DNA of 59,298 nucleotides from an uncultured Candidatus Saccharibacteria bacterium (GCA_964600085.1 CAZRHU010000002.1:1-59298); one strand, 5' to 3'; positions 103-38,838 are shown, counted from the stretch's first letter. Made by a program: numbers and translations. Notes: a model not told the origin generated them from the letters alone.

Positions 103-112
103 GTTTGGCCTC

Positions 113-141: not shown

Positions 142-148
142 ACGAAGT

Positions 149-11878: not shown

Positions 11879-13240
11879 TTAATTAAAAAGCCTACTCTTT
11901 ATAAGATCTATTTCTTCGTTGAAATTTTCATTATTTTTAATTTCTTTCTCTATTTTATTACAAGCGTGCATAACCGTTGTATGGTCTCTTCCGCCAAACT
12001 TTTCTCCTATATACGGATAAGAGTTCTTAAGCTCTCTTCTTATTAAATACATACAAATTTGCCTCGGTCTCACAATCTCTCTTTTTCGGGATTTATTAAT
12101 AAGATCCTCTTCTTTAACATCATAAAAACTAGAAACAATTCTTATTATATTTTTAGTGTTTATTTTAGCTTTACTTTTTTGATTTAAACTAAGGAGACTT
12201 CTAACCCTCTCCACTGAGGGAGTTTTACCTGTTAGGTGGGTTGTCGCCACAACCTTATTTAAAGCTCCCTCTAACTCTCTTATATTAGAAGAAACCGTAT
12301 TAGCTATAACACCAAGAATCTCATCGTCAACTCCATAGCTTTTCTCTTCTACCTTTGTTTTTAAGATGGCTAACCTTGTTTCGTAGTCGGGCGCTGATAT
12401 ATCAGCTATCATCCCCCCTTCAAAACGTGAACGAAGTCTTTCCTCAAGAGTTGGTATTGCTTTTGGTGGCCTATCCGAGGATAGGACGATCTGTTTATTT
12501 CTTCCGTGAAGATCGTTAAAGGTGTGAAAAAACTCTTCCTGAGTTTTTTCTTTTCCAGATATAAATTGGACGTCATCCAGTATTAAAAGATCTACTTTTC
12601 TATAATCATTTTTAAATTCCTCGGTGCCCTTTTTTGATATAGCTGACACAAGATCCCTAGTAAACTTTTCTGAGCTTACATATTTTATTTTCTTTTGGGG
12701 ATTGTTGGTTTTTATATAATTTCCAACAGCCTGTAAAAGGTGTGTTTTTCCTAAACCGACCCCACCGTATATAAATAAAGGGTTGTAAGTTTTACCCAAG
12801 TTTTCACTAACGGAAACAGAGGCGGCATGAGCTAGTTCGTTAGAAGACCCAACCACAAACGATTCAAAGGTGTATTTAGGATTAAGGTTGGTTTCTTTAT
12901 CTGTATCTACTTCCGCGAAGTTTAACTGGTTTTCTAAGGCAGCGGTGTCCACCTCTTTCTTTTTTGTTTTCTTTTCTCTTATCGCCAACTCTTCTTGGGG
13001 TTTTATGATAAATTTTATATCTTTTGTGTCAGAGGTTATATTTCTTAACGACTTTAAAACAAGTCGGTTATATTTTTTTTCTAACCACTCTTTAGTGAAG
13101 GTGTTTGGGACAGCTAGAACAACAACACCATTCTTTTTCGAGATAATAGATGTATTTTTAAACCATGTAATAAAATTAGCCCTCGATATAGATAGTTCTA
13201 TTTCAGCTAAAGCTGACTGCCAAAGTTCTTCTTTGTCCAT
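11879..13240 (-). CDS. dnaA: chromosomal replication initiator DnaA
   Basis: Walker A GGVGLGKTHLL, Walker B LLILDDVQF, sensor and arginine finger motifs, and a C-terminal box-binding HTH (GGRDHTTVMHA). Confidence 0.95.
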   Translation of the reverse strand: MDKEELWQSALAEIELSISRANFITWFKNTSIISKKNGVVVLAVPNTFTKEWLEKKYNRLVLKSLRNITSDTKDIKFIIKPQEELAIREKKTKKKEVDTAALENQLNFAEVDTDKETNLNPKYTFESFVVGSSNELAHAASVSVSENLGKTYNPLFIYGGVGLGKTHLLQAVGNYIKTNNPQKKIKYVSSEKFTRDLVSAISKKGTEEFKNDYRKVDLLILDDVQFISGKEKTQEEFFHTFNDLHGRNKQIVLSSDRPPKAIPTLEERLRSRFEGGMIADISAPDYETRLAILKTKVEEKSYGVDDEILGVIANTVSSNIRELEGALNKVVATTHLTGKTPSVERVRSLLSLNQKSKAKINTKNIIRIVSSFYDVKEEDLINKSRKREIVRPRQICMYLIRRELKNSYPYIGEKFGGRDHTTVMHACNKIEKEIKNNENFNEEIDLIKSRLFN

Positions 13241-13466: not shown

Positions 13467-13616
13467 ATGCCTAAATCAAAAGCTTTAACCTACAACCCAA
13501 AAAAAAAGAAGAGAAAGAGAGCGCACGGCTTTAGAAAAAGATCTTCTTCTCCAACCGGTCGTCGAGTTTTAAAGAATCGACGAAAAAAGAAAAGAAATAA
13601 TCTAACCCCTAAATAA
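13467..13616 (+). CDS. rpmH: 50S ribosomal protein L34
   Basis: Hand translation gives MPKSKALTYNPKKKKRKRAHGFRKRSSSPTGRRVLKNRRKKKRNNLTPK. It is absent from the ORF track (under 60 aa) and sits in the canonical position upstream of rnpA. Confidence 0.9.
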   Translation: MPKSKALTYNPKKKKRKRAHGFRKRSSSPTGRRVLKNRRKKKRNNLTPK

Positions 13617-14218: not shown

Positions 14219-15001
14219 ATGATAACAGCTTTTTTTCATACAATTCTAACCCAACCACTATTTAATATACTGGTTTTTCTCTATAACACAGTTGCTTTTG
14301 GTGACTTTGGGTTGGCGGTTATCTTTATAACAGTTCTTATAAGGTTGATTTTATGGCCCCTGTCTTATAAGGCTATTAGGGCCCAGCGGGATATTCAGGT
14401 AATACAGCCCAAGGTAAAAGAGATTCAAAATAAATATAAAAATAATAAAGAAGAGCAGACAAAAGCCCTTTTAGAATTATATAAAGAAAACAAAGTCAAC
14501 CCACTCGGTGGATGTTTGCCCGTTTTAGTACAGTTACCTATTTTAATCGGTCTTTATAGTGTTTTGTTGAAGGGCTTGAATCCAGAATATCTTCAAAACC
14601 TCTACTCTTTTATAGATAATCCAGAAATTATAAACCCGAGCTTTTTAGGTATTCTTGATCTTTCTTCTAAGAGCGCGGTTCTTGCTTTAATAACGGGTGT
14701 TTTGCAATTTTTCCAATCTAAAATGATAATGCCCGGCGTTGGTCTTAGAGATAAGGTTAAAAAGGGTCCCGAGGCCATAGGTCAAATGGTTACCAAGCAG
14801 ACGGTCTATTTTCTACCCGTTGTAACCATCTTTATTGCCTGGAGCCTTCCTGCCGGACTTCCTCTTTACTGGTCAACCACCACCCTCTTTACAATTTTCC
14901 AACAATTTATTATAATGAGAACTCAAAATGGGAAAGAGAGAGGAAATAAAAAAAATAGTCGAGGAGACGATGGGCTTATTAGATCCCAAGGGAAAGATTG
15001 A
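14219..15001 (+). CDS. yidC: YidC/Oxa1-family membrane insertase (short form)
   Basis: Conserved core GCLPVLVQLPILIGLY and LPAGLPLYW. The start is uncertain (14195 or 14219). Confidence 0.85.
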   Translation: MITAFFHTILTQPLFNILVFLYNTVAFGDFGLAVIFITVLIRLILWPLSYKAIRAQRDIQVIQPKVKEIQNKYKNNKEEQTKALLELYKENKVNPLGGCLPVLVQLPILIGLYSVLLKGLNPEYLQNLYSFIDNPEIINPSFLGILDLSSKSAVLALITGVLQFFQSKMIMPGVGLRDKVKKGPEAIGQMVTKQTVYFLPVVTIFIAWSLPAGLPLYWSTTTLFTIFQQFIIMRTQNGKERGNKKNSRGDDGLIRSQGKD

Positions 15002-15383
15002 GCTTAAAGAAGATGCTGAAAAGCTCAGGATTAATTTTAATACAGAAGAAGCCGGAATACTTATTGGAAAAGGGGGAGGCAATTTAAGGGCTCTTCAACA
15101 CCTATTACTACTTGTTGTTTCAAGGAGAATGGGTTTAATTTTTAAGCCCGGGTCATTTGTTTTTGATGTTAATAATTACCACAAAGATAGAGAAAGATAT
15201 CTCGTAGCTTTAGCCAAAAACACAGCCCAAGAGGTGATAGATAGAAGGCGTTCTAAAGAGCTTCAACCAATGCCTGCTTCAGAGAGACGCATCGTCCACG
15301 TTACCCTTGCTGATTATAGCGGGATAAAAACAGAGAGCGTTGGCCAGAGAGATGAAAGGAGGGTGATTATAGGGACGGATTAA
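14928..15383 (+). CDS. jag: Jag/KhpB-like RNA-binding protein (KH plus R3H domains)
   Basis: GILIGKGGGNLRALQ (KH GxxG) and a C-terminal R3H-like ERRIVHVTL. The 74-nt overlap with yidC makes the start uncertain. Confidence 0.8.
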   Translation: MGKREEIKKIVEETMGLLDPKGKIELKEDAEKLRINFNTEEAGILIGKGGGNLRALQHLLLLVVSRRMGLIFKPGSFVFDVNNYHKDRERYLVALAKNTAQEVIDRRRSKELQPMPASERRIVHVTLADYSGIKTESVGQRDERRVIIGTD

Positions 15384-15420
15384 GAAACTAAGAAAATAAG
15401 AAATTCAAAATTGAGTACCA

Positions 15421-15447
15421 AAAAAACTCCCCGGCGGGGAGTTTTTT
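15421..15447. terminator. bidirectional intrinsic terminator
   Basis: AAAAAACTCCCC-GGC-GGGGAGTTTTTTT. Confidence 0.8.
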
Positions 15448-15456
15448 TGGTGAGAA

Positions 15457-15960
15457 CTAAAGGCCTAGTGCTGGTTTAGCGCCTGTTCCTATCATTCTAA
15501 CAACATAAGTGTCTGAATCACAGGCTAAAAAGGGAACGTTGGCTGGCGGAGGTAGTTTTTTAAGCCCTTCGATAATAGGTTTAGTAACGGTCTTAGACCA
15601 GGTTAATCCTAGAGACCACTCAAACATACTAATAGGTTTAAATTCATAAACCTTAGTTGGAGAAAATAATTCTAAAATATCGCTAATACCTGGTATTTTA
15701 CCAAGAATTCCACCTGACATATCATCGGCACTTATCACATAAGCCTCTACTGGAACAGGGTTGCCGACTTTAATTTTTTTAAAAGGACAACCCGCTCCGG
15801 GTGGGATTATTAATTTTATTTTTCCACCAAAGGGCTTACCTCCCACACTAAGGTCATCAACAGGACCTATGGCCGAGGTTGTGTTGGTTAAGAAGAAAAC
15901 AAAACCCAAAACCAGGATTAGTATTAGAGAGAAAGTTGTTAATTTTAATTTATGAATCAT
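15457..15960 (-). CDS. T4SS-like operon, last gene: N-terminally anchored or secreted protein, unknown
   Basis: 167 aa with an N-terminal TM/signal segment. Its start overlaps the upstream stop by 4 nt (15957-15960). Confidence 0.6.
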   Translation of the reverse strand: MIHKLKLTTFSLILILVLGFVFFLTNTTSAIGPVDDLSVGGKPFGGKIKLIIPPGAGCPFKKIKVGNPVPVEAYVISADDMSGGILGKIPGISDILELFSPTKVYEFKPISMFEWSLGLTWSKTVTKPIIEGLKKLPPPANVPFLACDSDTYVVRMIGTGAKPALGL

Positions 15961-17081
15961 TTTAGTTTTAGACGATATAAGTTATTATTTATTTTATCTA
16001 CAAAGAGAAGATAATCTTCATTTTTTGTTAACTTTAATATTGTAGCGTTTCCAAGAGGGGCTCTCTCAACCAACTCGGTGAATCCACTCTCTAAATTAAT
16101 CTTAATAATCCTAGAGTTTTGGGTGGTCAATTTTTCTTTATAATACTCATCTGGCATTATTAAACTAGAAACAGCAGAGCTTATAGTAGAGCAGAATATA
16201 TATCTATCATCTTGCGAAAAAACACACCTCTCTGGAACCGTGGAGATATCCACTAGCTTTTGTTCTCTATCATCTAAAAGAATCTGGTTTATCTTGTAAT
16301 CTCTTCCATCTCTATTTGTTTCTGAAAAGATCGCTCTCTCTCCGTTTATTGAAACTAAAACCTCTATTCCGTTTTTAGAGCCCAGGATACGAGTTAGATT
16401 TTTTGTTCTTGTGTTTAATAAATAAAACACTCCCGGGGCCAACCCCGAAGGTTTTGTTGTTAAAATTAGGGTATTAGTATTCAACCACTTTACTTTTAGA
16501 TCGGGCACAGGAGAACTGTAAATATTTATATCACCCTCTTTAGAAGAAAGAATAACCACACTACCCTCCTCTGACGGCAGAGTGTAGGTTAGTTCATTAT
16601 TTAAAGAAAAGCTCACACTTATTATATCTTTTGGCAGACTAGATATTCTCTTGCTTATTAAGTCGAAACTAATCCAACGATTACCACCCCCTTCTGTATT
16701 TACTAGAGCTACCAACTCTTCTTTATTTGGATTAAAGAAGGCCTTTAAAATTTTTCCAGAAGAAATATTGGCTACCTCTTGAGTAGAGGCGTCTAAGAGG
16801 TTTGTCTCGTTAATAATTCCATCTCTATTTACTGATAAAATTATATTATTAAAAACATAGTAACCAACAACTTCTTTAGCTATTTGAATTAATTCATCTT
16901 CAGGGCCAACCTCATCAATGGCATTAGTGTTGTCTGTATCTGCTGAAAGAGGGCCAGAGTCGTTAGTGTTGTTCGTTGTGTTGCCACTATTTCCTGTGAA
17001 GAATAAGTTATAAATTAAAAGACCAACAAATATAATTGCTAAGATTGCTATTACTATTATGATTATTTTTTTACGAGACAT
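15957..17081 (-). CDS. T4SS-like operon: bitopic protein with Asn/Thr-rich linker and large extracytoplasmic beta-rich domain, unknown
   Basis: 374 aa with an N-terminal TM (IIIIVIAILAIIFVGLLIY), then low complexity, then repetitive beta-strand-like segments. Confidence 0.6.
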   Translation of the reverse strand: MSRKKIIIIVIAILAIIFVGLLIYNLFFTGNSGNTTNNTNDSGPLSADTDNTNAIDEVGPEDELIQIAKEVVGYYVFNNIILSVNRDGIINETNLLDASTQEVANISSGKILKAFFNPNKEELVALVNTEGGGNRWISFDLISKRISSLPKDIISVSFSLNNELTYTLPSEEGSVVILSSKEGDINIYSSPVPDLKVKWLNTNTLILTTKPSGLAPGVFYLLNTRTKNLTRILGSKNGIEVLVSINGERAIFSETNRDGRDYKINQILLDDREQKLVDISTVPERCVFSQDDRYIFCSTISSAVSSLIMPDEYYKEKLTTQNSRIIKINLESGFTELVERAPLGNATILKLTKNEDYLLFVDKINNNLYRLKLK

Positions 17082-17104
17082 GTTGAAATAAGTGTTTTAT
17101 TAGT

Positions 17105-17746
17105 TTAATTATCTTCAGGCTTAAAGCAACACATATCTACGCTGGGATATTCGGCGCCTAATGGTTCTAGTCCTCTAGCTTCACATAAGTTATCAGGAAC
17201 TCCTCGCCATCCTGTACCCAATCTACTACAAGCTTGTTGCCCGGGCCCACTCTGAATCCACTGGTAATTTCCATTTTCTCCCACAATTTCGCACACTCCG
17301 CTTACACATTCGTAATGGTTACTACCACAGTCGGAATTAGAAGAGCAGGAAGTACCTAAAACTCCGGGGTCTTCTGTGTATTTATTAATACTCGGAGTTC
17401 TTAAATTAGTTAAGTCCGGATTTATAGTGTTTAAAAGAAGAACGGAACCGGCTATTATTACTATACCTATGACCGCTCCCCATATCATTTCTTTTGCCTC
17501 TTTAATCTTTTCAGTAGCTCCTGAGGTCATCCAAACAATGCCGGCGTATATTAAGGTTCCTACTGCCGCTATAGAGGTGACGCCCAACATTAGATAAAAA
17601 ATATACTCAATCCAACCGGCTGGCCCTCCCCCCGGCGAAGCTTCGTTAATTGGAGGGTAGTAAACCTCTAACCCCTTGGCCACAATAGGTAGCGCTAGCG
17701 AAAAGAAAAGGATAAAGATTAAAGTTTTATATGTTTTCTTGCTCAT
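17105..17746 (-). CDS. VirB2/TrbC-like T4SS pilin candidate with Cys-rich C-terminal domain
   Basis: A signal peptide is followed by two hydrophobic helices separated by a short charged loop (..IYAGIVWMTSGATEKIKEAKEMIWGAVIGIVIIAG..NTINPDL). A roughly 90-aa tail carries 10 Cys. Confidence 0.5.
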   Translation of the reverse strand: MSKKTYKTLIFILFFSLALPIVAKGLEVYYPPINEASPGGGPAGWIEYIFYLMLGVTSIAAVGTLIYAGIVWMTSGATEKIKEAKEMIWGAVIGIVIIAGSVLLLNTINPDLTNLRTPSINKYTEDPGVLGTSCSSNSDCGSNHYECVSGVCEIVGENGNYQWIQSGPGQQACSRLGTGWRGVPDNLCEARGLEPLGAEYPSVDMCCFKPEDN

Positions 17747-18465
17747 CTGTTTTTTGTTATATATAGACTCGTTGAAGCGCCACCTCTTTCTCCAAGATTT
17801 CCGCGGTTCTCAACACCTAAACTTAGCCTTTTTCTTATCTTTGTAGCTGTTTCACTGCTTATATTTAAATTTAAAGCGTTAGAATTTTTATCTACAGAAA
17901 CTCTTTTTCCGTCAAACATCCAAGAGAAGAACAGTTCACTTAAAGAAGAAACGTTAAAATAAAAAGGTTTAGCTTCTATTGTTTTTACTTCTCCTGGTTT
18001 TGAGACAACCTCCTCCCCCACAAATCTTTCGTCTTCATATAAAATAACACTAGGAGAAACGGTGGGCACTTCTATAAAAACTCTACTAGTTAGATCGTTA
18101 TAAATATTTCTAACCTCTAATTCTATTTTATGAGTAAAGTTCGGTATAACGTCTTCAGTTTGAAAAGTAAAAGTATTATTTCCTATACTAACCTTGTTTG
18201 CTCCTCCACCCCAAGAAGAAGAATCGTTTATAGACCAAGAAAACTCCAAGTTTGCTCTATTTTGAGTTGGGGTAAGGGCTATTAATTCTAAAACACTTCC
18301 TTTCGTGGGCAGGGCTTTTCCTTCATAGTCCGCGGGGATAAACGTATTTGTGCCCCAAACAACATCAACAACAAAATTATTTTCTAGAGCTTTTACTTCT
18401 TGGGCTCCGCCCAAGAAGACTAAGAAAGAAAACGCTAATAATAATACTTTAGTAAAAAATTTCAT
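17743..18465 (-). CDS. T4SS-like operon: secreted beta-sandwich-like protein, unknown
   Basis: 240 aa with a cleavable-looking signal peptide. Overlaps the downstream gene by 4 nt. Confidence 0.6.
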   Translation of the reverse strand: MKFFTKVLLLAFSFLVFLGGAQEVKALENNFVVDVVWGTNTFIPADYEGKALPTKGSVLELIALTPTQNRANLEFSWSINDSSSWGGGANKVSIGNNTFTFQTEDVIPNFTHKIELEVRNIYNDLTSRVFIEVPTVSPSVILYEDERFVGEEVVSKPGEVKTIEAKPFYFNVSSLSELFFSWMFDGKRVSVDKNSNALNLNISSETATKIRKRLSLGVENRGNLGERGGASTSLYITKNR

Positions 18466-18469
18466 ATTT

Positions 18470-18802
18470 TTAAGTAGCTTTTTTTAGGGCTTTAAGCGGT
18501 ATTTTTTCTGTTACTTTATGTCTTAGATAAATAGCTATAACCATTAAGGTAAAGGGTGGAAGAATTTGTAAGATAGGAATTATCTCTACTATCATACTAA
18601 CACTTCCTCCAATTGCTCCCTTAAGACCCAATCCATTAAAGGCAAGCCACAACCAAAGAGAAAGAGAAAAAACGAACATTAAGACCGGGTTAAAAACTTG
18701 TCCAATAAAAGGTATTAAACTAATAAAGAAGCTGGCAGCATCAGCTAAAATAGCTGTTGTGAGCATAAATATAAATGTTGTTTTAGATAATTTTCCGTCC
18801 AT
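18470..18802 (-). CDS. T4SS-like operon: small 3-4 TM membrane protein, unknown
   Basis: 110 aa, almost entirely hydrophobic, with 4-nt gaps to its neighbours. Confidence 0.6.
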   Translation of the reverse strand: MDGKLSKTTFIFMLTTAILADAASFFISLIPFIGQVFNPVLMFVFSLSLWLWLAFNGLGLKGAIGGSVSMIVEIIPILQILPPFTLMVIAIYLRHKVTEKIPLKALKKAT

Positions 18803-18806
18803 AGTA

Positions 18807-20582
18807 TTAACCTAATTCTCTTTTAGCTTTTTCTATTTCTAGTATTTGAGCGGGGTCGGATGTTATAACCTGATCCTCGGTGTAAGAAGCAACAACTTTT
18901 ATAGCTGCTCTCTTTAAGCCCGCAAAAAATATTCCTTCACCAACATTAGACTCTAAAAGCAATAGCTTTTCTTCCTCAGTAAGGTTAAATGTTTTTTGAA
19001 CTATGTCTATAGCTGCCGGCGATTGTTTTAATAAGAGCTGAATAGAAGAGTTGGTAACAATCGGTTTGCCGTAGGCTGATTTCATAAAATCTTCCACATC
19101 TTGGGTTATGGTAGAAAGACCTAAAAAGTATTTTCTTCCTCTTTTAGCGATAGAAAAAAGAAACTCGGCCGCTTCTTTATGTTGCATCATCCACCAAGCT
19201 TCATCTACTACCATTATTCTCTTCTTTAATTTTCTTCTAACACGATTCCAGACATAGTGAAGAAGAATATACATAGCTATAGGTCTTAATTCTGGCTCAA
19301 GGTCGCGAATACTAAAGGCCACGAGATTGTTATTGAGAGCAACATTAGTAGGGTTGTTTAAGAAGCCGGAGTATGATCCAGAAACAAACTTTTCTAAGCG
19401 AGTAGCTAAGCTATCAGCTCCTTCCATATTTTTCAAGACTGTATAGAGATCACCGATCACGGGAGGTGTTTTTCCTTGCCAGTCAGAAGAGGTGGTAATA
19501 TCTTTTGAAGCGTATGTTTCATTTAAGGCCTTATCTATAATTGCCTCTTCTTCTGGTGTTAAGTCACCTAACATAACTTTTAAAAGTCCTGTTAGCTGTA
19601 TTATATGAGAGCGCAGAACCTCGGCCGGGTTATCGTCGTCGGGTATTTCCGGAAGATCAAAAGGATTAATATGGTGCGATGAAGTAAGAGATATATTTAC
19701 ATGAGTTCCCCCAACTACATCTGTTAAGTATTTATACTCGTTTTCTGGGTCTATAATTATAACTTCAGTCCCAAGCATTAAAGAACGCAAGACCTCTAAT
19801 TTAACGGCGTAACTCTTTCCAGCTCCTGATTTAGCAAATATAACGGCATTAGCATTCTCTAAAGAAAATCTATCAAAAAGGACAAGAGAGTTATTGTGGC
19901 GGTTTATACCGTAGAGAACCCCCTTATTCGAAGTTAAGTCCGCTGACACAAAAGGAAAGAAGCTGGATAGTGGCCCAGAATTAAAGCCGTTGTATATCTC
20001 TAATCGATCCCAGTTAATTGGGAGATTGGATCGAAATCCCTGTTCTTGTTGAAAAGATGCTTTTTTAGCATAGACTAGTTTTGACTCTAAGATTGTTGTA
20101 ATATCATTCTCTATCTCATTGAGCTCATCTTTATTGGATCCATAAAACGTTATATAAAGACCAGCCTCAAAAAATCTCTCAACTCCTTGTTGAAGCTTGT
20201 CTCTTAATTTTTCTACGTCTTTGTAAGCGGTTTCTAAAACCGGATCTCTAACAAACCCCTTCTCTTCTTTTTCGCTAACCTGAGCGCCTATCTGGGCAAC
20301 TTTTTTCTGTAATTTTTTTAAGACCTCACCACTATTTACTGGTCTTATAAAGAGGGATATATCCATCTTCTTATCAAGATTTATCACCGGAGAAAACCAA
20401 GAAACGGAAAGGTATCTAGGATAAACAGCTATAAATAAAGTCCGGATCATTTTGTCACCCACCTTTAATTGGGATGGCTCTATTTGCATACCGGCGGGAG
20501 CTAAAAGATCAACAAGAGAACTCTCTCTGGATTTTTCTTCTTTCTTCTTATCTTTTTCGTCTTTTAAAAATGGAATATCCAT
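18807..20582 (-). CDS. virB4: VirB4-like T4SS ATPase, middle plus C-terminal ATPase part
   Basis: Walker A AKSGAGKSYAVK and Walker B IMVVDEAW. The segment preceding them (LKVGDKMIRTLFIAVYPRYLSVSWFSPVI..DISLFIRP) matches the conserved VirB4/TrsE middle region. Confidence 0.8.
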   Translation of the reverse strand: MDIPFLKDEKDKKKEEKSRESSLVDLLAPAGMQIEPSQLKVGDKMIRTLFIAVYPRYLSVSWFSPVINLDKKMDISLFIRPVNSGEVLKKLQKKVAQIGAQVSEKEEKGFVRDPVLETAYKDVEKLRDKLQQGVERFFEAGLYITFYGSNKDELNEIENDITTILESKLVYAKKASFQQEQGFRSNLPINWDRLEIYNGFNSGPLSSFFPFVSADLTSNKGVLYGINRHNNSLVLFDRFSLENANAVIFAKSGAGKSYAVKLEVLRSLMLGTEVIIIDPENEYKYLTDVVGGTHVNISLTSSHHINPFDLPEIPDDDNPAEVLRSHIIQLTGLLKVMLGDLTPEEEAIIDKALNETYASKDITTSSDWQGKTPPVIGDLYTVLKNMEGADSLATRLEKFVSGSYSGFLNNPTNVALNNNLVAFSIRDLEPELRPIAMYILLHYVWNRVRRKLKKRIMVVDEAWWMMQHKEAAEFLFSIAKRGRKYFLGLSTITQDVEDFMKSAYGKPIVTNSSIQLLLKQSPAAIDIVQKTFNLTEEEKLLLLESNVGEGIFFAGLKRAAIKVVASYTEDQVITSDPAQILEIEKAKRELG

Positions 20583-20589
20583 AATGTTT

Positions 20590-21252
20590 TTATTCTGGTT
20601 GTTTTTCTTCTTCCCCGGTGGCTAATAATTGTTCAAAGTTATCTTGCTTTAAGGTTGTGTCTGGGTTATATAGGCTGTGGTAGAGCTCAACTAACTCTCT
20701 ATCTCTTAAAGGAATAGCTCTTAAACTCATTTGAGAAAGAAGATTTATTATTCTACTCATTCTTAATTCTAATTCTTCTACCGCTTCTTCCATCTCTAGA
20801 TCTTTCTTCTTTTTTTTATCCTCTTTACCCGGAACTATCTTTTCTAACCAACCCTTCTTTTTTACGATGGACATATCGTAAGGAACTACTATGTAAAAAA
20901 ACTTAGACATAATATTAGACAACTCTATCAACTCATCTACAAAATCTAGATACTCGGAGGTCTGAATTTTTAAAAGTTCATTATCTTGCTCTCCCTGTTT
21001 TTCTTTAAGGAAAGAAAAATACTCACTAAGGTTTAAGGGTCGTGAATGGATGATAATTTGAGTTGTAAAATCCAGAGAATTTAAAAGGTTTTGGAAAGAG
21101 TTTATAATCGCTTTTTTCTCATCGTTAGATTTTAAGCTAAAGTTTAACGATGAAACCATTAGAACACCCCTAAAGTTGCCGTTTTTTAACACAACGGTTC
21201 CATTTCTTATCTCTTTAACATCTACAAATTGATGGGTTGATTGTTCAGACAT
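20590..21252 (-). CDS. VirB4 N-terminal domain encoded as a separate ORF
   Basis: VDVKEIRNGTVVLKNGNFRGVLMVSSLNFSLKSNDEKKAIINSFQNLLNSLDFTTQIII resembles the N-terminus of Gram-positive VirB4/PrgJ/TcpF proteins. 220 plus 591 aa equals a typical VirB4 length. Seven nt and a frame change separate the two ORFs. Confidence 0.6.
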   Translation of the reverse strand: MSEQSTHQFVDVKEIRNGTVVLKNGNFRGVLMVSSLNFSLKSNDEKKAIINSFQNLLNSLDFTTQIIIHSRPLNLSEYFSFLKEKQGEQDNELLKIQTSEYLDFVDELIELSNIMSKFFYIVVPYDMSIVKKKGWLEKIVPGKEDKKKKKDLEMEEAVEELELRMSRIINLLSQMSLRAIPLRDRELVELYHSLYNPDTTLKQDNFEQLLATGEEEKQPE

Positions 21253-21255
21253 AAT

Positions 21256-21543
21256 TTAATGTTTATTCTTTTTTTTCCAGTGATATTCTTGGGGTTTAAA
21301 AGCAAAACCTATTAGAGATGTTAAGTATCTAGGTAAGCTCATTCCTCCTATCTTAACGAAGGCAAGAGAGAAAGCAACTACAGCTATAGGGATAGAAACA
21401 GTAATGGCGTAAACCAACCTAAAGAGAAAAAAAGATATAAATACAAGAGCGCCTCCCCCGGCCAAGTATAAAAATTGTTTAATAGTAAAGGGGCCTACTA
21501 TCTTGTCTTCAACGTCTATAAATTGTGGAACTTGGTAACGCAT
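21256..21543 (-). CDS. PrgI/VirB3-like small membrane protein
   Basis: 95 aa. The YQVPQFIDVEDKIVGPFTIKQFLYL motif followed by two TM helices is typical of PrgI-like proteins. It sits immediately upstream of virB4, as in virB3-virB4 and prgI-prgJ. Confidence 0.55.
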   Translation of the reverse strand: MRYQVPQFIDVEDKIVGPFTIKQFLYLAGGGALVFISFFLFRLVYAITVSIPIAVVAFSLAFVKIGGMSLPRYLTSLIGFAFKPQEYHWKKKNKH

Positions 21544-21557
21544 AATTTTTTAAAAAA

Positions 21558-22208
21558 TTAATCTCTAGGTTTTTCTCTACGAGGAGGTATTTTAGATAGG
21601 TCTATTGTTCTGCCATTCCATACTCCTTTTTTGGTGGGTTGGGAAGTCATTGTGGCTTGGGTGGAATCTTCCTCGTTCTCTTTTAATTTATTTATAAGAT
21701 CTTCCTTTCTCTTTTTGGCGACATCTTCTTTATTCTCGGTTTCTATCTCTGGTTCCACGATTACTGGCTTTGGTTCTTCTTCAGGAATAGGTTTTGGTTC
21801 TGGGGTCTTATTTTTATTTACCACATCTTCTGACTTTAAGTCGTGAACTAGTAATAAACTTTCTCTTACAGGTTGAAATATCTGTTCATTTATATCTCCA
21901 GCCAGTAGAGATGCTTTTTGAATGTCTATATTTAAAGCTTTAGAGAGCTCTTCTATAAAGTCGCTTACTTTTATTACTCCCAACATTACTAAGCCAATAA
22001 CTCTAGCGACACCGCTTACGCTTTCGTCAGGCAAGCCGTTTTTAGTTTTAACGATATTCCAAACTTTACTACTAGTCTCTTCCGAGATCATTGTTTCTCT
22101 AAGGTCTTTAGGGAGTTGGTAATACAAGGCAACTCTCTCTCTTACCAGAGGACTTTCTATCTGACTTATGTCGTCTAATTGTTGGGGTGTTAAAGTTTGC
22201 GTCTTCAT
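21558..22208 (-). CDS. T4SS-like operon: soluble protein with Glu/Lys/Pro-rich tail, unknown
   Basis: 216 aa with no TM segment. Confidence 0.55.
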   Translation of the reverse strand: MKTQTLTPQQLDDISQIESPLVRERVALYYQLPKDLRETMISEETSSKVWNIVKTKNGLPDESVSGVARVIGLVMLGVIKVSDFIEELSKALNIDIQKASLLAGDINEQIFQPVRESLLLVHDLKSEDVVNKNKTPEPKPIPEEEPKPVIVEPEIETENKEDVAKKRKEDLINKLKENEEDSTQATMTSQPTKKGVWNGRTIDLSKIPPRREKPRD

Positions 22209-22229
22209 AGTGTTCTTTTAAATTTGTTT

Positions 22230-24191
22230 TTATAGATCTATTTCCTTAGTCCCGGATTCAGCCTGCCAGTCCTCGGTATCTTCTCTATCTCTCATCGCTT
22301 GGTGTCCCGGACTTCCTTGAAGGTGCTCCTGAAGTTTTTTAGGCATCCTATCTAAATTTTCATCTAACAGAGTCAATAATTGGCCATGCCTTTTTGAATT
22401 TTCTTCTAAAGATTTATTAATATGAGCTGTTGTAAATCTTTTATCGGCAAACCTATCTACCACTATCTCTTGAATCACGTCATCTTCAAAGGCATTATCA
22501 CTAAGTGTTTTAGCAAATTCGGTTGGTTTAGACGGCATTACATTTTCTATTATGAACTTCTTAATTTCTTCTCGTTCCTCTCTGTTGTCTTTTGATAATC
22601 CAGTAAGACCCTTCCAAGCAGCTTGATCTTTTTCACTTATTCTAGGGTTTGAGGCCAATTCTTTCTGAACTTCTTTTTCCATAGCCCAGTGAGGCACGGA
22701 TTTTAGAATATCTTTTATATCAGCCCCAGAGTTAATAACGTCAGGCAGGTGTTTTTTATCACCCTCTTCTAATTTTCCTTTCTCGGCTAGTAATTTTAAG
22801 GCCTCTACCCTCTCCGCTCTCCCTTTTCGTGTAGTTACGGTTTGATTAACTTTCTGTCTTAGGGCTGTTGGGTCTCCTTTTATTTTTTCTACTTCTTTAG
22901 AGGCCTCTTTTAGGGTTTCTTGTTCTTTTTTATAGGTGTGACCAGGACCGCCCGCCATTTTTCCAATAACTGGTAACCCCTCTGTTTTTTTCCGAAAAGC
23001 TATTTCTTTTTCAGATATCTTTTCGCCTACTGGCGTTCTTTCAAGAATCTCCCCAGTTCTTTTTACTGCTTTACGGGGTGACTTTGCTAAATACTTTCCC
23101 CCTGTCTTCATCTTACCTAGAGACCAATTTTTAGCTTTATCGCTCCAGTTTTTTGCCATACCAGCTCCTGCCAAGCCCCATTTTTGAGACGTTATAAGGC
23201 CGAAGAAGAGAATAAACAGGACGGTTAAGTACTGTAGAAAAAGAGTGATGTTTTGAAATGGCTCTCCTCCTCTCTTAGTTAATTCTCCCGATATCTCTGG
23301 AGCATTGCCAAACAATGATTCGCCAAACCCTAAACCAGTCAAGAGAGCTAAGTATATAAAAAAACCAAAGATGGCTGGGAAAAACGCCCACTTTAAGAAA
23401 TTATCCCACCACCCCGACCAGATTTTTTTAGTATCGGGTAATATATAAGACGCCCAAGCAAATGGTGCTAATATAAGCAAAACCCAGAGATAAATAATTC
23501 TAAATATCATTATTAAAGCCATGGCGAAAAGGAGAAAAGCCACTATGATGACAAAAATTAAATTCATTACTCCACGAATAAGAATGTTTATGTCGTCACT
23601 AGCTGTTTCTCCTTCAGGGTCTATTGTGTTGTATTTAGGAATATTAAATGTGTTGCTTATAGCTAAAGCAGCTTGAATATTATCTCCTACGTTTACAACC
23701 TCCCCCTTTTCGTTAACAGCTCCCGCTGAAGTAAAGAATAAACCCACATCATTTCCCATATCTATAAAGACACCTCCTATTACTAAGCTGAAGTTTATTA
23801 ATAGAGCTATTAGTATGAATTTAGGAAGAAGTTTTTTAACACCATAATTATCTAATTTTAAAATAGTAGCCAATCCGATATACAAGAGTATAAGTATAAA
23901 GAACATATTAGCTACGTCTCTTGATATTGCCCAACCTTCGTTTACTAAAGGATTATTCATAAACTCTCCAGCACTGTAAGACCAGTTAACCAAAGCTCCA
24001 GCTATAGGTAAAAGTACGGCCCCAAAGAAGTTTGCTAAAAAGTGAATAAACCAACCGACTGGTGAAATTAGAGCATCACCCACAAAACCAGTAATAGGAT
24101 TAGCTTTAGCAAAGTGGATTGGAACTAAAAGACCTCCCCCAATTGTGAATAGGGACAGAAGTAAAACATTATATTTATTTCTATATTCCAT
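22230..24191 (-). CDS. VirB6/TrbL-like polytopic membrane protein with hydrophilic C-terminal domain
   Basis: 653 aa. Six or more TM helices occupy the first 340 aa or so, followed by a charged C-terminal half. Size, topology and position match VirB6/TrbL/PrgH-type channel subunits. Confidence 0.55.
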   Translation of the reverse strand: MEYRNKYNVLLLSLFTIGGGLLVPIHFAKANPITGFVGDALISPVGWFIHFLANFFGAVLLPIAGALVNWSYSAGEFMNNPLVNEGWAISRDVANMFFILILLYIGLATILKLDNYGVKKLLPKFILIALLINFSLVIGGVFIDMGNDVGLFFTSAGAVNEKGEVVNVGDNIQAALAISNTFNIPKYNTIDPEGETASDDINILIRGVMNLIFVIIVAFLLFAMALIMIFRIIYLWVLLILAPFAWASYILPDTKKIWSGWWDNFLKWAFFPAIFGFFIYLALLTGLGFGESLFGNAPEISGELTKRGGEPFQNITLFLQYLTVLFILFFGLITSQKWGLAGAGMAKNWSDKAKNWSLGKMKTGGKYLAKSPRKAVKRTGEILERTPVGEKISEKEIAFRKKTEGLPVIGKMAGGPGHTYKKEQETLKEASKEVEKIKGDPTALRQKVNQTVTTRKGRAERVEALKLLAEKGKLEEGDKKHLPDVINSGADIKDILKSVPHWAMEKEVQKELASNPRISEKDQAAWKGLTGLSKDNREEREEIKKFIIENVMPSKPTEFAKTLSDNAFEDDVIQEIVVDRFADKRFTTAHINKSLEENSKRHGQLLTLLDENLDRMPKKLQEHLQGSPGHQAMRDREDTEDWQAESGTKEIDL

Positions 24192-25146
24192 TTATTAAAA
24201 CATCACTTACCCAGATGCTTATTATTGCTCCCACCACCTCATAAAAAGTGTCAGCGTTTTGGACCAAGTGATCAACCTCTGCTCCAACAGCTCTATTAAC
24301 TTGGTCCGATATGTTTATACCAGGAGTTATGGTTATTAGGTCCTCTGGTGGACAAGTAGAGATGTCGCCACCACTTATACATTTTTGCTGTGGTCTATAA
24401 CCTTGATAAGCTACAACCTGCGTTTCTTCTGCTTGTAGTGCTTCTCCCTGGCGCAGTATCTGTTCGTCTCTAGTTTCTAACCAAAAACCCAATTCGTTAT
24501 TAGATGATTCGTGAAATCTTATCCATCTATCCCAGCTACCACTTCTAAAATCATCAAAAAATCTCTCAATAGCTTGGGATTGAATATTTATAGCATCGGT
24601 TAGAGAACAAGCAAAAGGGGAAGATCTATACCACCGCGGTAATGAGTTGTGGAGTATTATCTCGAATTGGGGCCTAAAAGGTGTGCAGATATCTACACCT
24701 ATAACTTCTTCAACAAAACTGGCAGCGGTTACATCAACTGTACGTTTAAACTCCTCCTTAAAATTTTCTATAAATTTATCGGTGTCTCTAACAAAGTCTC
24801 GAATATCATTAGCAAGAGCTATAATAAGAGCTCTCTTAAGCTCTTGTGAGTAGCAATGTTTTTGGTTGTCTTTTTCTCTAGGAATATCCGTTTCTACTGT
24901 TACAGGGACACTGTCACTACCAAGCCCCACATCTATACCTAAATCAAAAAAATCTCCTCCTAAGTCTCCTAACCAATTATCCATAAGGCCTGTAAGTCCA
25001 TCCATCACCAAGCACTTCGCAGCACCAGCAGCAAAATCGTCTAATAAAACAGCCTCTACCTCTTGAGCACGAAAAAAGAAAGTAGAGGTTAGAGAAGATA
25101 TAACCAGAATTACAACAATTACTTTTTGGATTTTAGAATAAATCAT
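24181..25146 (-). CDS. T4SS-like operon: secreted or anchored protein, unknown
   Basis: 321 aa with an N-terminal hydrophobic segment. Overlaps the downstream gene by 11 nt and the upstream gene by 4 nt. Confidence 0.6.
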   Translation of the reverse strand: MIYSKIQKVIVVILVISSLTSTFFFRAQEVEAVLLDDFAAGAAKCLVMDGLTGLMDNWLGDLGGDFFDLGIDVGLGSDSVPVTVETDIPREKDNQKHCYSQELKRALIIALANDIRDFVRDTDKFIENFKEEFKRTVDVTAASFVEEVIGVDICTPFRPQFEIILHNSLPRWYRSSPFACSLTDAINIQSQAIERFFDDFRSGSWDRWIRFHESSNNELGFWLETRDEQILRQGEALQAEETQVVAYQGYRPQQKCISGGDISTCPPEDLITITPGINISDQVNRAVGAEVDHLVQNADTFYEVVGAIISIWVSDVLINGI

Positions 25147-25904
25147 TCTAAAGACTTTTTTATATCGCGGAAATAATTCGTAATTTCTATACCCAGATCC
25201 TGGATCTTATCAGCGGCTGCTATAACTAATATGCCACGCACATTATCCTCTTCCTTTTTAAGAAAACCGCTTTCTATAAAAGCTTGGATGGCTGAAGAAA
25301 AAACTAATAATTTTTTATGGAACTCTACATACTCAACTGGAACCTCTAATTTTCTCGATGCTTCATCCCCAGCTTGAACCAACTTAACAACATTTTCTAA
25401 TCTCCCCCTCTCTTTAAGAGTGACAGATAACGGATCAGAGACCATTAGGGTTTCTTGCCAAGCTCCAAGCAAAACCAAAACCTCTTTTGTTATTTTTTTA
25501 ACATAAGTTTTTTTATCAGCTAGTATCTGTAGGTTTAAATCTTTATCTTTTATCTCTGGAAAAATTGATTGTATTTCTTTTTCCAAAAGAGGTGAAATTT
25601 CCTCCATAATCTCTTTACTTTCTAGATTCTCTTTATTTATTTCTCCAGAAGCAATCTTTTCAGATAAAAAGAATAAGAAGCTGTCTGTCGACGAATTCTT
25701 TTCAGAACCAGAGATAAAATCTAATTCTTTTAATATTTCGTTAGTTGAAGATTGATAAGGAATAGAATCGATATTCTCGCTCCATTGAACCTGCCCTTCA
25801 CTTGTTTCACTCTTGAGCACTAAAAAACCGCCGATAAAAACACCGGCGATAAGAAACACCACTCCGCTAATAGACAAAATTATTTTCCCCCTCCGATTGT
25901 TCAT
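25143..25904 (-). CDS. T4SS-like operon, first gene: bitopic membrane protein, unknown (VirB8-like topology only)
   Basis: 253 aa with a single N-terminal TM. A 280-nt AT-rich intergenic region lies upstream. Confidence 0.6.
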   Translation of the reverse strand: MNNRRGKIILSISGVVFLIAGVFIGGFLVLKSETSEGQVQWSENIDSIPYQSSTNEILKELDFISGSEKNSSTDSFLFFLSEKIASGEINKENLESKEIMEEISPLLEKEIQSIFPEIKDKDLNLQILADKKTYVKKITKEVLVLLGAWQETLMVSDPLSVTLKERGRLENVVKLVQAGDEASRKLEVPVEYVEFHKKLLVFSSAIQAFIESGFLKKEEDNVRGILVIAAADKIQDLGIEITNYFRDIKKSLE

Positions 25905-26184
25905 AAATTAAATTTATATCTAGCTTTATTATAACATCTAACAGCTCTATTTTTTAAGTAAGGTTTGAGGGGTTTTGATTTAATCTTTTAACAAGTTTTC
26001 CCCTTTAATTTATTAAAGTTTAAGGGGTTAAAATTCAGATAATATAAACCTAAAATTTTCTTTAAAAAAATAAAGAAAATAAAAATAAGGTCCATCAACC
26101 TTAATAAAAAGTAACACTCCTTTCTTTTTTATTTTTTATTTAGAAATTTTATTATCCATTATTTAGAAGGATTACCAATGTTTT

Positions 26185-27018
26185 TTAAGGTTGCTTTTTA
26201 AACTTTAGAGAGTTATAAATCTTAAGCCAGTCTTCTTTTTTTATCTCATGAGCTCTAATTCTCGGACTTAAATCTAGTAGTTTTAACTCTTTTTCTAATT
26301 CTGACTTATCCACAGACTCTAACTCTAAAAGATTATTTAATAAAGTTTTTCTTGGTTGTCTAAAACTCTTTTTTAAAAAATTTATAAAATTATTTTTGTC
26401 TTTTATTCTATTTGCTTTAATGGGCTTGATTTCTATAATTGCCGAGTCAACTTTTGGTTCTGGCCAAAAATTCTCTTTTTTTATAATTGTTTTTAAGCTA
26501 GCTCTTCCTAAAAACGAAATCGTCGTAGAAAGAAAATTAGACTTTGGAGGTGTGGCAACTATTCTCTCCGCTACTTCTTTTTGAATTGTGAGGACGATTG
26601 ATTTGGGAAGGTTTTTCGTTAAGAGAAATTTTCTTATAATAGGTCCGGTGATGTAGTAAGGGATGTTTCCAACAACCTTGTAAGGTTGTTGGAGTTCTTC
26701 TTGGTTAAAGTTCAAGATGTCACCCTCTACAACTTTAAAGTTATTTTTTTCTTTAAATTTACTCTTTAATACCTTTACAAAATTTCCATCTTTTTCTACG
26801 GCGATTATTCTACTTCCCCTTTTTAAAATTTCATCAGTTAAATTTCCTGGACCAGGACCTATTTCTAATATTGTTTCACTTGGCGACACTTCAATCAAAT
26901 CAGCTATTTCTTCTATAAATTTTTTATTAACTAAAAAATTTTGACCCTTATATTTAGAAGGTTTTAACATTTTTTCTGCGAGTAATTTTTTTATCTCTTT
27001 TTCTAGATCTTTTTCCAT
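26185..27018 (-). CDS. rsmA: 16S rRNA (adenine1518/1519-N6) dimethyltransferase
   Basis: GQNFL motif and SAM-binding EIGPGPGNLT. Confidence 0.9.
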   Translation of the reverse strand: MEKDLEKEIKKLLAEKMLKPSKYKGQNFLVNKKFIEEIADLIEVSPSETILEIGPGPGNLTDEILKRGSRIIAVEKDGNFVKVLKSKFKEKNNFKVVEGDILNFNQEELQQPYKVVGNIPYYITGPIIRKFLLTKNLPKSIVLTIQKEVAERIVATPPKSNFLSTTISFLGRASLKTIIKKENFWPEPKVDSAIIEIKPIKANRIKDKNNFINFLKKSFRQPRKTLLNNLLELESVDKSELEKELKLLDLSPRIRAHEIKKEDWLKIYNSLKFKKQP

Positions 27019-29304: not shown

Positions 29305-30336
29305 ATGCTTTTAGGGTTATCTTTAGCAGTTGCTGGTCTTCTTAATATTCAAGATCCGACTCTTTCTAACTCAGAAAACGTTATAGAAGACCTGTCTGAT
29401 AGTGGTTTTTATTCTAAATTTTCCTCTTTATATCCCCAATTTCAGGGAGCAATTTTATTTTTAGGGGAAAAAACAACTCAGAAAGAGATTAACGCCGGTG
29501 GTCCGGAAAATATCGATGATTCCTTTGAATTAGCTACTGTTGGAGGAAGTTCTCTTTTGTCTAAGGGTCAGGTTTTAACCATAGCCCCCACCGCATCAAC
29601 TCTAACAAGAGAAGCTCTCACCTTTAAATATAAGGTTGCTAAGGGAGACACTCTGTCCAGTATAGCCAGTGATTTTGGAGTCTCTCTAGAAACTATTTTT
29701 TGGGCTAATAATATGAATTCTCGCTCTATTATTAAACCGGGAGATGAAATAACAATCCTTCCTATTGATGGTGTAACTCACGTGGTTAAAAGGGGGGATA
29801 CTGTTGAATCTATTACTCGGCTCTACAGGGCCGAAGTCAATGATGTTTTATCTTTTAATAGCCTTAATAGGGAGAGCATTATAAGAATAGGAGATGTTTT
29901 AATTATACCGAATGGTAAACCGCGTAGCGTTTCTCCAAGTCGGGCAAATTATACTACCCCCCTACACTCGCTTATTGATTTAACAGGTTATTTTAGTGTT
30001 CCCGCCCAAGGTCGTCTTACTCAAGGCCTTCATCCCTATAATGCTGTCGATATTGGCGGAAGAGATTTCTGTAACACTCCAATTTATGCTTCTGCTAACG
30101 GTAGAGTTATTAAAGCTGTTTCTAGTGGTTGGAATGGTGGTTATGGAAAATTTATTAAGCTATCTCATCCCAACGGAACGGTAACTCTTTATGCTCACAA
30201 TTCAGAGCTATTAGTTTCTTCCGGCGACCAGGTAACTCAAGGAGAAGTTATTGCTCTTATGGGCGATACCGGTAATACAACCGGTTGTCATGTTCACTTC
30301 GAGGTTCGTGGCGCCAGAAATCCATTTGGCGGATAG
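29305..30336 (+). CDS. LysM-LysM-M23 peptidoglycan endopeptidase
   Basis: Two LysM repeats (YKVAKGDTLSSIA.., HVVKRGDTVESIT..) and M23 motifs HPYNAVD and GCHVHFE. The reading frame is open back to 29131 with a basic plus hydrophobic N-terminal-like sequence but no ATG/GTG/TTG, so the true start is unresolved. Confidence 0.85.
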   Translation: MLLGLSLAVAGLLNIQDPTLSNSENVIEDLSDSGFYSKFSSLYPQFQGAILFLGEKTTQKEINAGGPENIDDSFELATVGGSSLLSKGQVLTIAPTASTLTREALTFKYKVAKGDTLSSIASDFGVSLETIFWANNMNSRSIIKPGDEITILPIDGVTHVVKRGDTVESITRLYRAEVNDVLSFNSLNRESIIRIGDVLIIPNGKPRSVSPSRANYTTPLHSLIDLTGYFSVPAQGRLTQGLHPYNAVDIGGRDFCNTPIYASANGRVIKAVSSGWNGGYGKFIKLSHPNGTVTLYAHNSELLVSSGDQVTQGEVIALMGDTGNTTGCHVHFEVRGARNPFGG

Positions 30337-37902: not shown

Positions 37903-38838
37903 ATGCTAAAAAATCTTTTAAAAGACTATCTTGATTACTTAGAGATAGAAAAAAATCGTTCTATAAAGACGGTTGAGAACTATAAAAGATACCTCAGTCA
38001 TTTCTTAGATTGGGCTAAGGTCTCTAAGCCCAGAGAGATAAACGACGATTTGGTTCGGAAGTATAGAATATATTTAAATAGGGAGGGAGGAAGAGATAAA
38101 AAACCCCTAAAGAAAATAACCCAGAACTACTATATTATAGCTTTGAGGGGGTTTTTAAAATACTTAACCAAGAGAAAGATGGATTCTTTAGCTCCCGAAA
38201 GAGTAGAACTCGCCAAGACCTCAGAGAGAGATATAGATTTTTTAGAAGTAGAAGAAGTGGAAAGATTATTATCTTCTCCAGACACTACTAACTTGAGAGG
38301 TCTTCGCGATAAGGCGATATTAGAGACTCTCTTCTCTACCGGGCTCAGAGTCTCAGAGATTTGCGGTTTAGACAGGGACTCAATAAATTTTAAACGCAAT
38401 GAATTTTCTATTAGGGGTAAGGGTGATAAGGTAAGAGTTGTTTTTTTATCTGAAAGAGCTAAAAAAGCGCTAAAGGAATATCTAGACAAAAGAATTGACA
38501 TTGATGAAGCTTTGTTTATAAGAGTGTTAAGAGGTAATTCTTTCGGCGAAGGGTCTTCTTCATCAGATCTTCGATTAACACCCCGTTCTATTCAGCGTCT
38601 AATAAAAAAATATGCCACCAAGGCCGGATTAATAAAAGACATTCATCCTCACACCTTAAGACATAGTTATGCCACCGATCTTTTACGAAATGGTGCTGAT
38701 CTTCGCTCTGTCCAAGCTTTACTGGGACATTCTAATATTACCACTACTCAAATTTATACCCACGTTACAGACAAGCAGCTCCGCGAAGTTCACCAAAGGT
38801 TTCATAGTAAAAAAAGAAAAATTAATAACTCTAACTAA
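37903..38838 (+). CDS. xerC: XerC/XerD-type tyrosine recombinase
   Basis: N-terminal SAM-like domain. Catalytic residues are present: R (TGLRVSE), HTLRHSYAT and [15 protein letters not shown]. Confidence 0.85.

Follow-up and report, generated by a model that had tools for sequence, protein, structure and literature searches.

A chromosomal type IV secretion system of the Patescibacteria type, without DNA-transfer genes, in the dnaA region of an uncultured bacterium

Chromosomal type IV secretion systems (T4SSs) have recently been described in the Patescibacteria (candidate phyla radiation, CPR), ultrasmall bacteria among which they are near-universal. In Southlakia epibionticum, Wang et al. 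(2023; PMC10633639) found an origin-proximal T4SS that resembles the conjugative systems of Gram-positive bacteria, has no recognisable coupling protein or relaxase and, together with a pilin array, is essential for epibiotic growth as determined by transposon sequencing (Tn-seq). Quinonero-Coronel et al. (2025; PMC12102498) detected VirB4 in 2,417 of 3,035 Patescibacteria genomes, as a monophyletic clade nested in MPF_FATA, with TrsD, PrgI, VirB6 and VirB2-like genes as neighbours of virB4. They reported the same architecture, lack of a relaxase and origin-proximal context across 2,407 Patescibacteria assemblies, the virB4 neighbourhoods of Paceibacteria and Microgenomatia being rich in dnaA, dnaN, rnpA, ksgA and rpmH. 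A 2025 FEMS review (PMC12857230) assigns these systems to a new branch within the T4SS superfamily and speculates on the pilus as a conduit. We have analyzed a block of 12 open reading frames (ORFs; g1 to g12), located on the minus strand at 15457–25904 of a 59,298-nt stretch of DNA (hereafter the window) from an uncultured Candidatus Saccharibacteria bacterium (GCA_964600085.1 CAZRHU010000002.1:1-59298). The block is almost certainly a chromosomal T4SS of the kind typical of Patescibacteria. We put the probability at about 75% that it is a vertically inherited MPF_FATA derivative which has been stripped of DNA-processing parts and builds a surface structure for contact with a host.

Relatives were collected by way of VirB4. 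At E<0.001 it has 9,846 cluster representatives, and when GTDB was scanned with one genome for each species, at least 591 stretches proved to encode a VirB4 relative; the best 80 of these (VirB4 57–75% identity) were taken as related loci, and homologues of the block proteins were identified among all their ORFs using phmmer and iterated hidden Markov models.

The VirB4 ATPase is encoded in two pieces. The larger one, g7 (18807–20582, minus strand like all genes of the block; 591 aa), comprises the middle and C-terminal P-loop domains and is of the monoderm CD1110/MPF_FATA type, with matches to the VirB4-like conjugal transfer ATPase family conju_CD1110 of NCBIfam (E 2.3e-111, 373 bits, cutoff 325), Pfam P-loop_TraG (E 6.8e-25), AAA_10 and DUF87, and with 23% identity over 506 aa to PrgJ of pCF10. 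Its Walker A (GAGKSYAV) and Walker B (VVDEAW) motifs are intact, residues G253, G255, K256 and S257 of the former and D460 and E461 of the latter being invariant across 26 homologues. By these matches g7 is a genuine VirB4 and not a protein of the FtsK/HerA type. The smaller piece, g6 (20590–21252, 220 aa), has no hydrophobic segment and is identified by profile as a detached, TrsD-like N-terminal domain of VirB4, matching the N-terminal part of VirB4_plasma (E 6.3e-15), CD1110 (1.8e-6) and TrsD (1.6e-4) in NCBIfam; it shares 43% identity over 209 aa with residues 8–215 of a fused relative of 797 aa. The two genes are separated by 7 nt. Since the g6-type domain is an ORF of its own in 77 of the 80 loci, the split is not a sequencing artefact. 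Fused forms do occur, as in locus L076 (788–3160; 791 aa) and in many of the VirB4 cluster representatives of 800–900 aa.

Three further T4SS parts could be recognised. The 95-aa product of g5 (21256–21543) is a PrgI/VirB3-like membrane protein (Pfam PrgI, E 6.4e-13, 49.5 bits, cutoff 27), presumed to be the membrane anchor for VirB4. The product of g3 (22230–24191, 653 aa) is a polytopic protein of the 'extended VirB6' kind, with about 7 hydrophobic segments in residues 7–336 followed by a hydrophilic C-terminal domain of about 310 aa. Its own scores are sub-threshold (TrbL_4, E 0.0068; the VirB6-like CD3337/EF1877, E 0.0011), a precomputed TrbL_3 match is on record, and 7 of 34 syntenic homologues match Pfam TrbL/VirB6 (best E 6.7e-10), which suggests that g3 is VirB6/TrbL-like at the family level. 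The 213-aa product of g10 (17105–17746) has a signal peptide and two transmembrane (TM) helices and matches Pfam T4SS_pilin (E 1e-6, 29.1 bits, cutoff 26.6) and TrbC (E 0.0039), as expected of a VirB2-type pilin module; 49 of 61 members of its family match T4SS_pilin. Its C-terminal extension of about 100 aa is Cys-rich and contains no catalytic motif.

The 12 ORFs form a real and well-delimited operon. Their coordinates were all reproduced by ORF calling, and the gaps between them, from g1 to g12 in order, are -4, -11, 21, 14, 3, 7, 4, 4, -4, 23 and -4 nt. A promoter-like site on the minus strand (25928–25957; TTAAAA-18 nt-TG-TATAAT), about 25 nt 5' of the g1 start codon, has the highest sigma-70-like score within 15000–26400 (10/12 plus the TG extension), as a consensus match only. 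At the other end, 6 nt past g12, there is a bidirectional hairpin resembling an intrinsic terminator (15417–15451; 16-bp stem, 7 GC pairs, T-runs on both sides), which is common to the operon and the convergent jag. Identical genes with identical boundaries are present in an independent Logan assembly of run SRR7048227. An initial annotation, made from the sequence by eye, had described 12 co-directional, tightly packed ORFs that look like one operon ending close to the jag terminator, and all of this was borne out. It had also named four components: VirB4 with both Walker motifs, PrgI and the pilin agree with the profiles, and VirB6 holds for g3 at the family level only. The remaining ORFs, counted there as seven, number eight, and the statement that they all carry N-terminal signal or TM segments and match nothing applies to most of them; g6 was overlooked as a VirB4 N-terminal domain and has no hydrophobic segment, g4 has no N-terminal signal, and g11 and g9 are TolB-like and weakly Ig-like, respectively (see below).

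The block is embedded in housekeeping genes. On one flank lie dnaN, dnaA (11879–13240), rpmH (13467–13616), rnpA, yidD, yidC and jag, and on the other ksgA, a UvrD/PcrA helicase gene, a gene for a LysM and M23 peptidase, and comM. This context is exactly the Paceibacteria/Microgenomatia neighbourhood reported in PMC12102498. The 80 related loci are from metagenome-assembled genomes (MAGs) of Parcubacteria/Paceibacteria-type lineages, Azam-, Kaiser-, Nomura-, Moran-, Lloyd-, Zambryski- and Jorgensenbacteria among them, and wherever flanks are retained, the housekeeping neighbours are of the Patescibacteria type. In many loci the genes follow the order uvrD-ksgA-g1-g2-g3-g4-g5-g6-g7-g8-g9-g10-g11-(jag)-yidC-rnpA-dnaA-dnaN (e.g. 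L010, L014–L019, L029, L032 and L033). Homologues were found for g1 and g2 in 29 loci each, g3 in 52, g4 in 56, g5 in 73, g6 in 78, g8 in 49, g9 in 48, and g10 and g11 in 51 each; those of g8 lie directly 3' of VirB4 in all 49 cases. The plasmid VirB4s closest to g7 are from Firmicutes and Actinobacteria and share 28–36% identity with it. By identity and neighbourhood, not by phylogeny, the window VirB4 thus groups with those of Patescibacteria. Several MAGs among the related loci (L030, L043, L045, L052, L061, L062, L066, L077, L080 and others) are third-party annotation (TPA) records titled Bdellovibrionales, Gammaproteobacteria or Candidatus Saccharibacteria; since their T4SS and its neighbourhood are likewise of the Parcubacteria type, with VirB4 at 57–75% identity, these record names look unreliable.

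The operon (15383–25904) is convergent to rpmH-rnpA-yidD-yidC-jag, and the orientation is the same in relatives. If oriC adjoins dnaA, as is usual, it is transcribed toward the origin, head-on to replication. GC skew across the window gave no clear origin signal, and the window contains 26 DnaA-box-like sites (13 expected). Because these are not clustered by dnaA, the term 'origin-proximal' rests here on gene content.

No VirD4 coupling protein, relaxase, VirB11 or integrase was found in the block or among window ORFs of at least 400 aa, library searches revealed no hydrolase domain (VirB1-type or PrgK/CwlT/TrsG) in g1 to g12, and no meaningful flanking direct repeats were found. The nearest tRNA gene is at 39850, none being adjacent, and a gene for a Xer-type recombinase (37903–38838) is located 12 kb away. 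The GC content of the block equals that of its flanks. Origin from an integrative and conjugative element (ICE) or a plasmid was rejected, as the housekeeping site is kept across species and GC anomaly, adjacent tRNA and repeats are lacking. The initial annotation had arrived at the same list of missing functions, at a composition matching the flanks, and at a resident chromosomal apparatus rather than a conjugative element. Our results agree: the ATPase is a true VirB4 rather than FtsK/HerA, the block occupies a housekeeping site in many Patescibacteria rather than a plasmid or ICE with relaxase and VirD4, and the unknown ORFs are mostly conserved in synteny.

Seven genes encode accessory subunits. 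The product of g1 (25143–25904, 253 aa) is a bitopic membrane protein with a TM helix at residues 5–34 and a helical ectodomain, and has no match in Pfam, NCBIfam or PDB; a direct protein-database search returned g1 alone, a result apparently limited by the word-index prefilter. In 16 of 27 g1 relatives, bacterial TSP3 Ca-binding repeats (DxDxDG) lie between the TM helix and the helical domain. Compared with L010, L014–L019, L026, L027, L030, L043 and others, the window protein has either lost these repeats or never had them. The product of g2 (24181–25146, 321 aa) is predicted to be secreted, mainly helical and Cys-containing, with hydrophobic N- and C-termini and a C-terminal TM helix. It belongs to a Patescibacteria-specific family with the motifs WINxGFxGxPxFV, DFxxGGW, NNPYGAY and TPGS and conserved Cys residues, and has no Pfam or PDB match; database searches returned 3–4 proteins even with trimmed family alignments, the same prefilter apparently being limiting. 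The small protein g4 (21558–22208, 216 aa) consists of a conserved, helical N-domain (about 100 aa) followed by a disordered tail rich in Pro, Glu and Lys. With no N-terminal signal and only a weakly hydrophobic internal helix, it is probably cytoplasmic or peripheral. Its N-domain matches nothing in Pfam or PDB and was detected in 56 of 80 loci, every time between the VirB6-like and PrgI genes. Structure prediction for g2 and g4 failed because the admissible alignment depth was too low: an AlphaFold2 (AF2) model of g2 from a 6-sequence alignment (pLDDT 36) was discarded, and a single-sequence model of g4 (pLDDT 60) gave only PDB fold hits with E>0.1 and TM<0.25, which were rejected.

The product of g8 (18470–18802, 110 aa) is a small polytopic membrane protein with 3–4 TM helices by hydrophobicity profile. 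Its family is Patescibacteria-specific, with conserved A..D..D and E.IP....LP..T motifs, and has no match in Pfam or NCBIfam. The secreted, beta-rich g9 product (17743–18465, 240 aa) starts with a signal-like segment. Its family profile gave only weak Ig-like matches (Hoc 3shs, E 0.0027), and g9 itself matches PKD_3 at E 0.036; it probably consists of tandem Ig-like domains. The product of g11 (15957–17081, 374 aa) is anchored in the membrane at its N-terminus (TM residues 1–32). A profile built from 37 sequences of the family, the window protein being the first row, matches TolB structures (4pwz, E 9.2e-19), suggesting a TolB-like beta-propeller; the assignment holds at the family level, because the window sequence alone gives no PDB match.

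The last gene, g12 (15457–15960), encodes a small membrane-anchored or secreted protein of 167 aa with an N-terminal TM helix. No homologue was found in the 80 loci even at E<50, nor when metagenomes were scanned, and at 90% clustering it forms a singleton; it has no positional equivalent in relatives, because g11 there directly abuts jag or yidC. Despite this, its codon-position GC contents (GC1>GC2>GC3) and ATGA overlap with g11 suggest that it is a real gene, one that by these comparisons is genome-specific; the terminator follows immediately.

Profile-profile comparison revealed no paralogy among the operon families. No operon protein has a Pfam, NCBIfam or PDB-profile match to the VirB8-like NTF2 fold, and the g1 family looks helical, not NTF2-like. 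Comparison of the accessory profiles with single sequences of PrgC to PcfB of pCF10 (hhalign) gave probabilities below 15%; these negatives are uninformative, because the PrgI positive control failed too.

The C-terminal extension of g10 has counterparts in relatives, in which 48 of 60 pilin-module ORFs at the g10 position have tails of at least 60 aa. In eight of them (L028:7429–8199, L029:13628–14437, L032:12799–14124, L033:12826–13674, L045:15084–15941, L049:14765–15799, L054:14616–15692 and L074:7863–9479) the tail contains an invariant H-x6-D...H-x-H motif and appears to resemble the LAS/M15 zinc peptidases. This assignment is based on weak Pfam matches only (Peptidase_M15_4, Hedgehog-N (HH_signal) and VanY), and a PDB profile search was empty. 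Three further modules (L023:16401–17378, L081:15803–16741 and L039:3746–5125) are fused to other domains that look like hydrolases, two to the lysozyme-like SLT_3 and one to Peptidase_M23. We found no mention of pilin-hydrolase fusions in the 2025 survey (PMC12102498) or in the wider literature searched. A hydrolase also lies near the operon of the window: the LysM and M23 peptidase gene (29305–30336, plus strand; Peptidase_M23 2.2e-27, LysM 1.1e-21) is 3.4 kb upstream, two genes away. Twelve of the 80 related loci have a homologue in the vicinity of the block, and in L045, L047, L060 and L062 such a gene is found about 100–130 nt 5' of the VirB6-like gene on the same strand, in the place of g1 and g2. 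Its product is a candidate VirB1 analogue, which by this association may be a wall-remodelling partner outside the operon.

We tentatively propose, as an idea that is more likely wrong than right, that g1, g2, g4, g8, the Ig-like g9 and g11 form a Paceibacteria-specific wall-spanning and host-contact module that takes the place of the VirB7/9/10 core found in diderms and of the LPXTG adhesins found in Firmicutes. In this scheme the VirB2-like 'pilin' would be a carrier displaying variable C-terminal domains (Cys-rich here; M15/LAS, lytic transglycosylase or M23 in relatives), and the filament would deliver wall-cutting activity to the wall of the host or to that of the cell itself.

The recognised parts suggest how a contact structure could be built. 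A VirB4 hexamer composed of g6 and g7 would be held at the membrane by VirB3 (g5), resting on a platform formed by the VirB6-like g3 and perhaps g8. It would pull the VirB2-like pilin (g10) out of the membrane and polymerise it into a pilus-like or stalk structure. The secreted or anchored g1, g2, g9, g11 and g12 would form the wall-spanning, host-facing part, carrying the structure to the contact zone. The core output would probably be the assembled structure itself, used in interaction with a host cell rather than in conjugation; it may serve in attachment or in penetration of the wall, and possibly also as a conduit through which Sec-exported proteins or molecules from the host pass. Pilus biogenesis in F-type systems is supported by VirB4/TraC and requires neither VirD4 nor VirB11. 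Because recruiters of DNA or cytoplasmic substrates are absent and the parts sufficient for F-type pilus biogenesis are present, we regard the building of a surface or contact structure as the likeliest core activity, in a judgement that is evenly balanced.

Several observations weigh against a host-contact structure. For Patescibacteria T4SSs there is as yet no observation of a pilus or of a transported substrate, and the one species in which essentiality has been demonstrated belongs to the Saccharimonadia, whereas the lineage of the window is Paceibacteria-like. Neither a VirB5-like tip protein nor a VirB8-like protein was detected in the operon, and g3 itself is placed with VirB6 only by sub-threshold scores and by its family. 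Moreover, the window covers 59 kb only, and an unlinked type IV coupling protein (T4CP) may be encoded elsewhere in the genome; VirD4-like genes are present in most Patescibacteria genomes, mostly far from virB4 (PMC12102498).

Other activities have to be considered. The system could be a T4CP-independent translocator of proteins or effectors into or onto a host bacterium, comparable to Bordetella Ptl and Brucella VirB, with the pilin as part of the channel only. Wang et al. suggested that the Southlakia system 'may instead export proteins' (PMC10633639), and effector systems without a T4CP exist (PMC12857230). The Sec-type secreted g2, g9 and g12 could be cargo rather than structure, and the fusion of relatives' pilin modules to wall hydrolase domains also favours export. 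However, we found no gene resembling an effector, no toxin/immunity pair and no secretion signal, and the conserved secreted proteins, being syntenic across very distant lineages, fit structural subunits better than cargo; we consider export unlikely. Somewhat less likely still is a device for import, i.e. a conduit for uptake of DNA or nutrients from the host such as ComB of Helicobacter pylori or the archaeal Ced system. Synthesis of nucleotides, amino acids and lipids is missing in Patescibacteria, for which uptake from the host has been proposed (PMC12857230), comM lies nearby and is syntenic with the block in several relatives, and g7 weakly matches the archaeal DNA-import ATPase CedB (E 1.6e-10, 40 bits). 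This score is far under the cutoff of 700, however, g7 being much closer to the conjugative CD1110 VirB4s, and no CedA or ComB-specific subunit was detected. Furthermore, deletion of comEC in Southlakia abolished competence without affecting viability (PMC12857230). Since the T4SS of that organism is essential, its essential role is not DNA uptake through ComEC, nor does its essentiality depend on interaction with ComEC.

That the block is conjugative after all, either as a domesticated or decaying ICE remnant or as a mating-pair module using a T4CP and relaxase encoded elsewhere, is highly improbable. The membership of g7 in the conjugative CD1110 family would fit, as would the VirD4-like genes found elsewhere in most Patescibacteria genomes (PMC12102498), given that 59 kb of this genome was seen. 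Against it, the 12 ORFs are intact and tightly coupled, and many species have the block at this very housekeeping site; there is no GC anomaly, att repeat or integrase, and no tRNA gene is adjacent; purifying selection and synteny argue against decay; and only 103 of 3,035 Patescibacteria genomes contain a relaxase, the T4CP homologue of Southlakia not being essential (PMC12102498).

Among the other genes of the window, a PilB-type ATPase of type II secretion systems/type IV pili (T2SS/T4P) with an MshEN domain is encoded at its start (83–1813, plus strand), and comM (30405–31931, minus strand) adjoins the M23 gene, the order comM-M23-uvrD-ksgA-T4SS recurring in L032, L033 and L056. No support was found for the functional link of the T4SS with PilB and ComM put forward in the initial annotation. 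The window also contains a gene for tRNA-Ile with anticodon TAT (UAU) at 59226–59298 (plus strand), a type uncommon in bacteria, and two minus-strand ORFs with no Pfam match, at 33588–34739 (383 aa) and 4243–5103 (286 aa).

The locus is a further example of a known and recently reviewed system, and conceptually nothing about it is new. The reading of the block as a resident apparatus is right, yet it had already been published (PMC10633639, PMC12102498 and PMC12857230), including the missing relaxase and the position by dnaA, dnaN, rnpA and ksgA. New here are the conserved, unannotated accessory module and the pilin-hydrolase fusions in relatives. Much of bacterial diversity is accounted for by Patescibacteria, whose cultivated members are all host-dependent, and no T4SS other than theirs is known to be essential to its carrier. 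Being compact and complete, with a single pilin and 11 syntenic genes, this Paceibacteria-type locus is a possible template for modelling the structure of the machine or for reconstituting it in a heterologous host. The TolB-like g11 and weakly Ig-like g9 assignments and the pilin-hydrolase fusions offer concrete hypotheses for how the cell wall may be crossed.

Compared with known systems, the window T4SS resembles H. pylori ComB, Bordetella Ptl, Brucella VirB and archaeal Ced in being centred on VirB4 without a T4CP or relaxase, and these provide precedents for non-conjugative roles: DNA uptake (ComB), protein export (Ptl and Brucella VirB) and DNA import (Ced). However, three of them (ComB, Ptl and Brucella VirB) belong to the diderm MPF_T systems and have an outer-membrane core of VirB7/9/10, subunits which this locus does not have, and Ced has CedA proteins, of which this locus has none, with g7 scoring 40 bits (E 1.6e-10) against a CedB cutoff of 700. 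The likeness to the monoderm MPF_FATA systems (PrgD-PrgL/PcfC of pCF10, locus L082; TrsC-TrsD-TrsE of pGO1) is closer, the block sharing with them the PrgI family and the order VirB6-like, VirB3-like, VirB4, and with pGO1 also the arrangement of a split TrsD and VirB4 (PMC12102498). Unlike the conjugative MPF_FATA systems, the block is not on a mobile element and has no relaxase, VirD4/PcfC, PrgK-type hydrolase, LPXTG adhesin or detectable PrgL/VirB8 homologue, whereas it does have a VirB2-type pilin, which monoderm conjugative systems lack.

The closest counterparts are the systems of the Patescibacteria clade (Southlakia SEML1_0005-0019, PMC10633639; PMC12102498), with which the locus has in common an MPF_FATA-derived VirB4, a separate TrsD-like protein, PrgI/VirB3, a VirB6-like protein, a VirB2-like pilin and a chromosomal location by dnaA, dnaN, rnpA, ksgA and rpmH with no relaxase or T4CP nearby. 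As in Southlakia, an Ig-like exported protein is encoded near the cluster. The locus differs from Southlakia in having neither a lysozyme gene nor a recognisable NTF2/VirB8-like gene in the operon, in having a single pilin gene with a Cys-rich tail in place of an array of six pilins, and in having the Paceibacteria-type accessory set g1, g2, g4, g8 and g11, which is unannotated in PMC12102498, together with the genome-specific g12.

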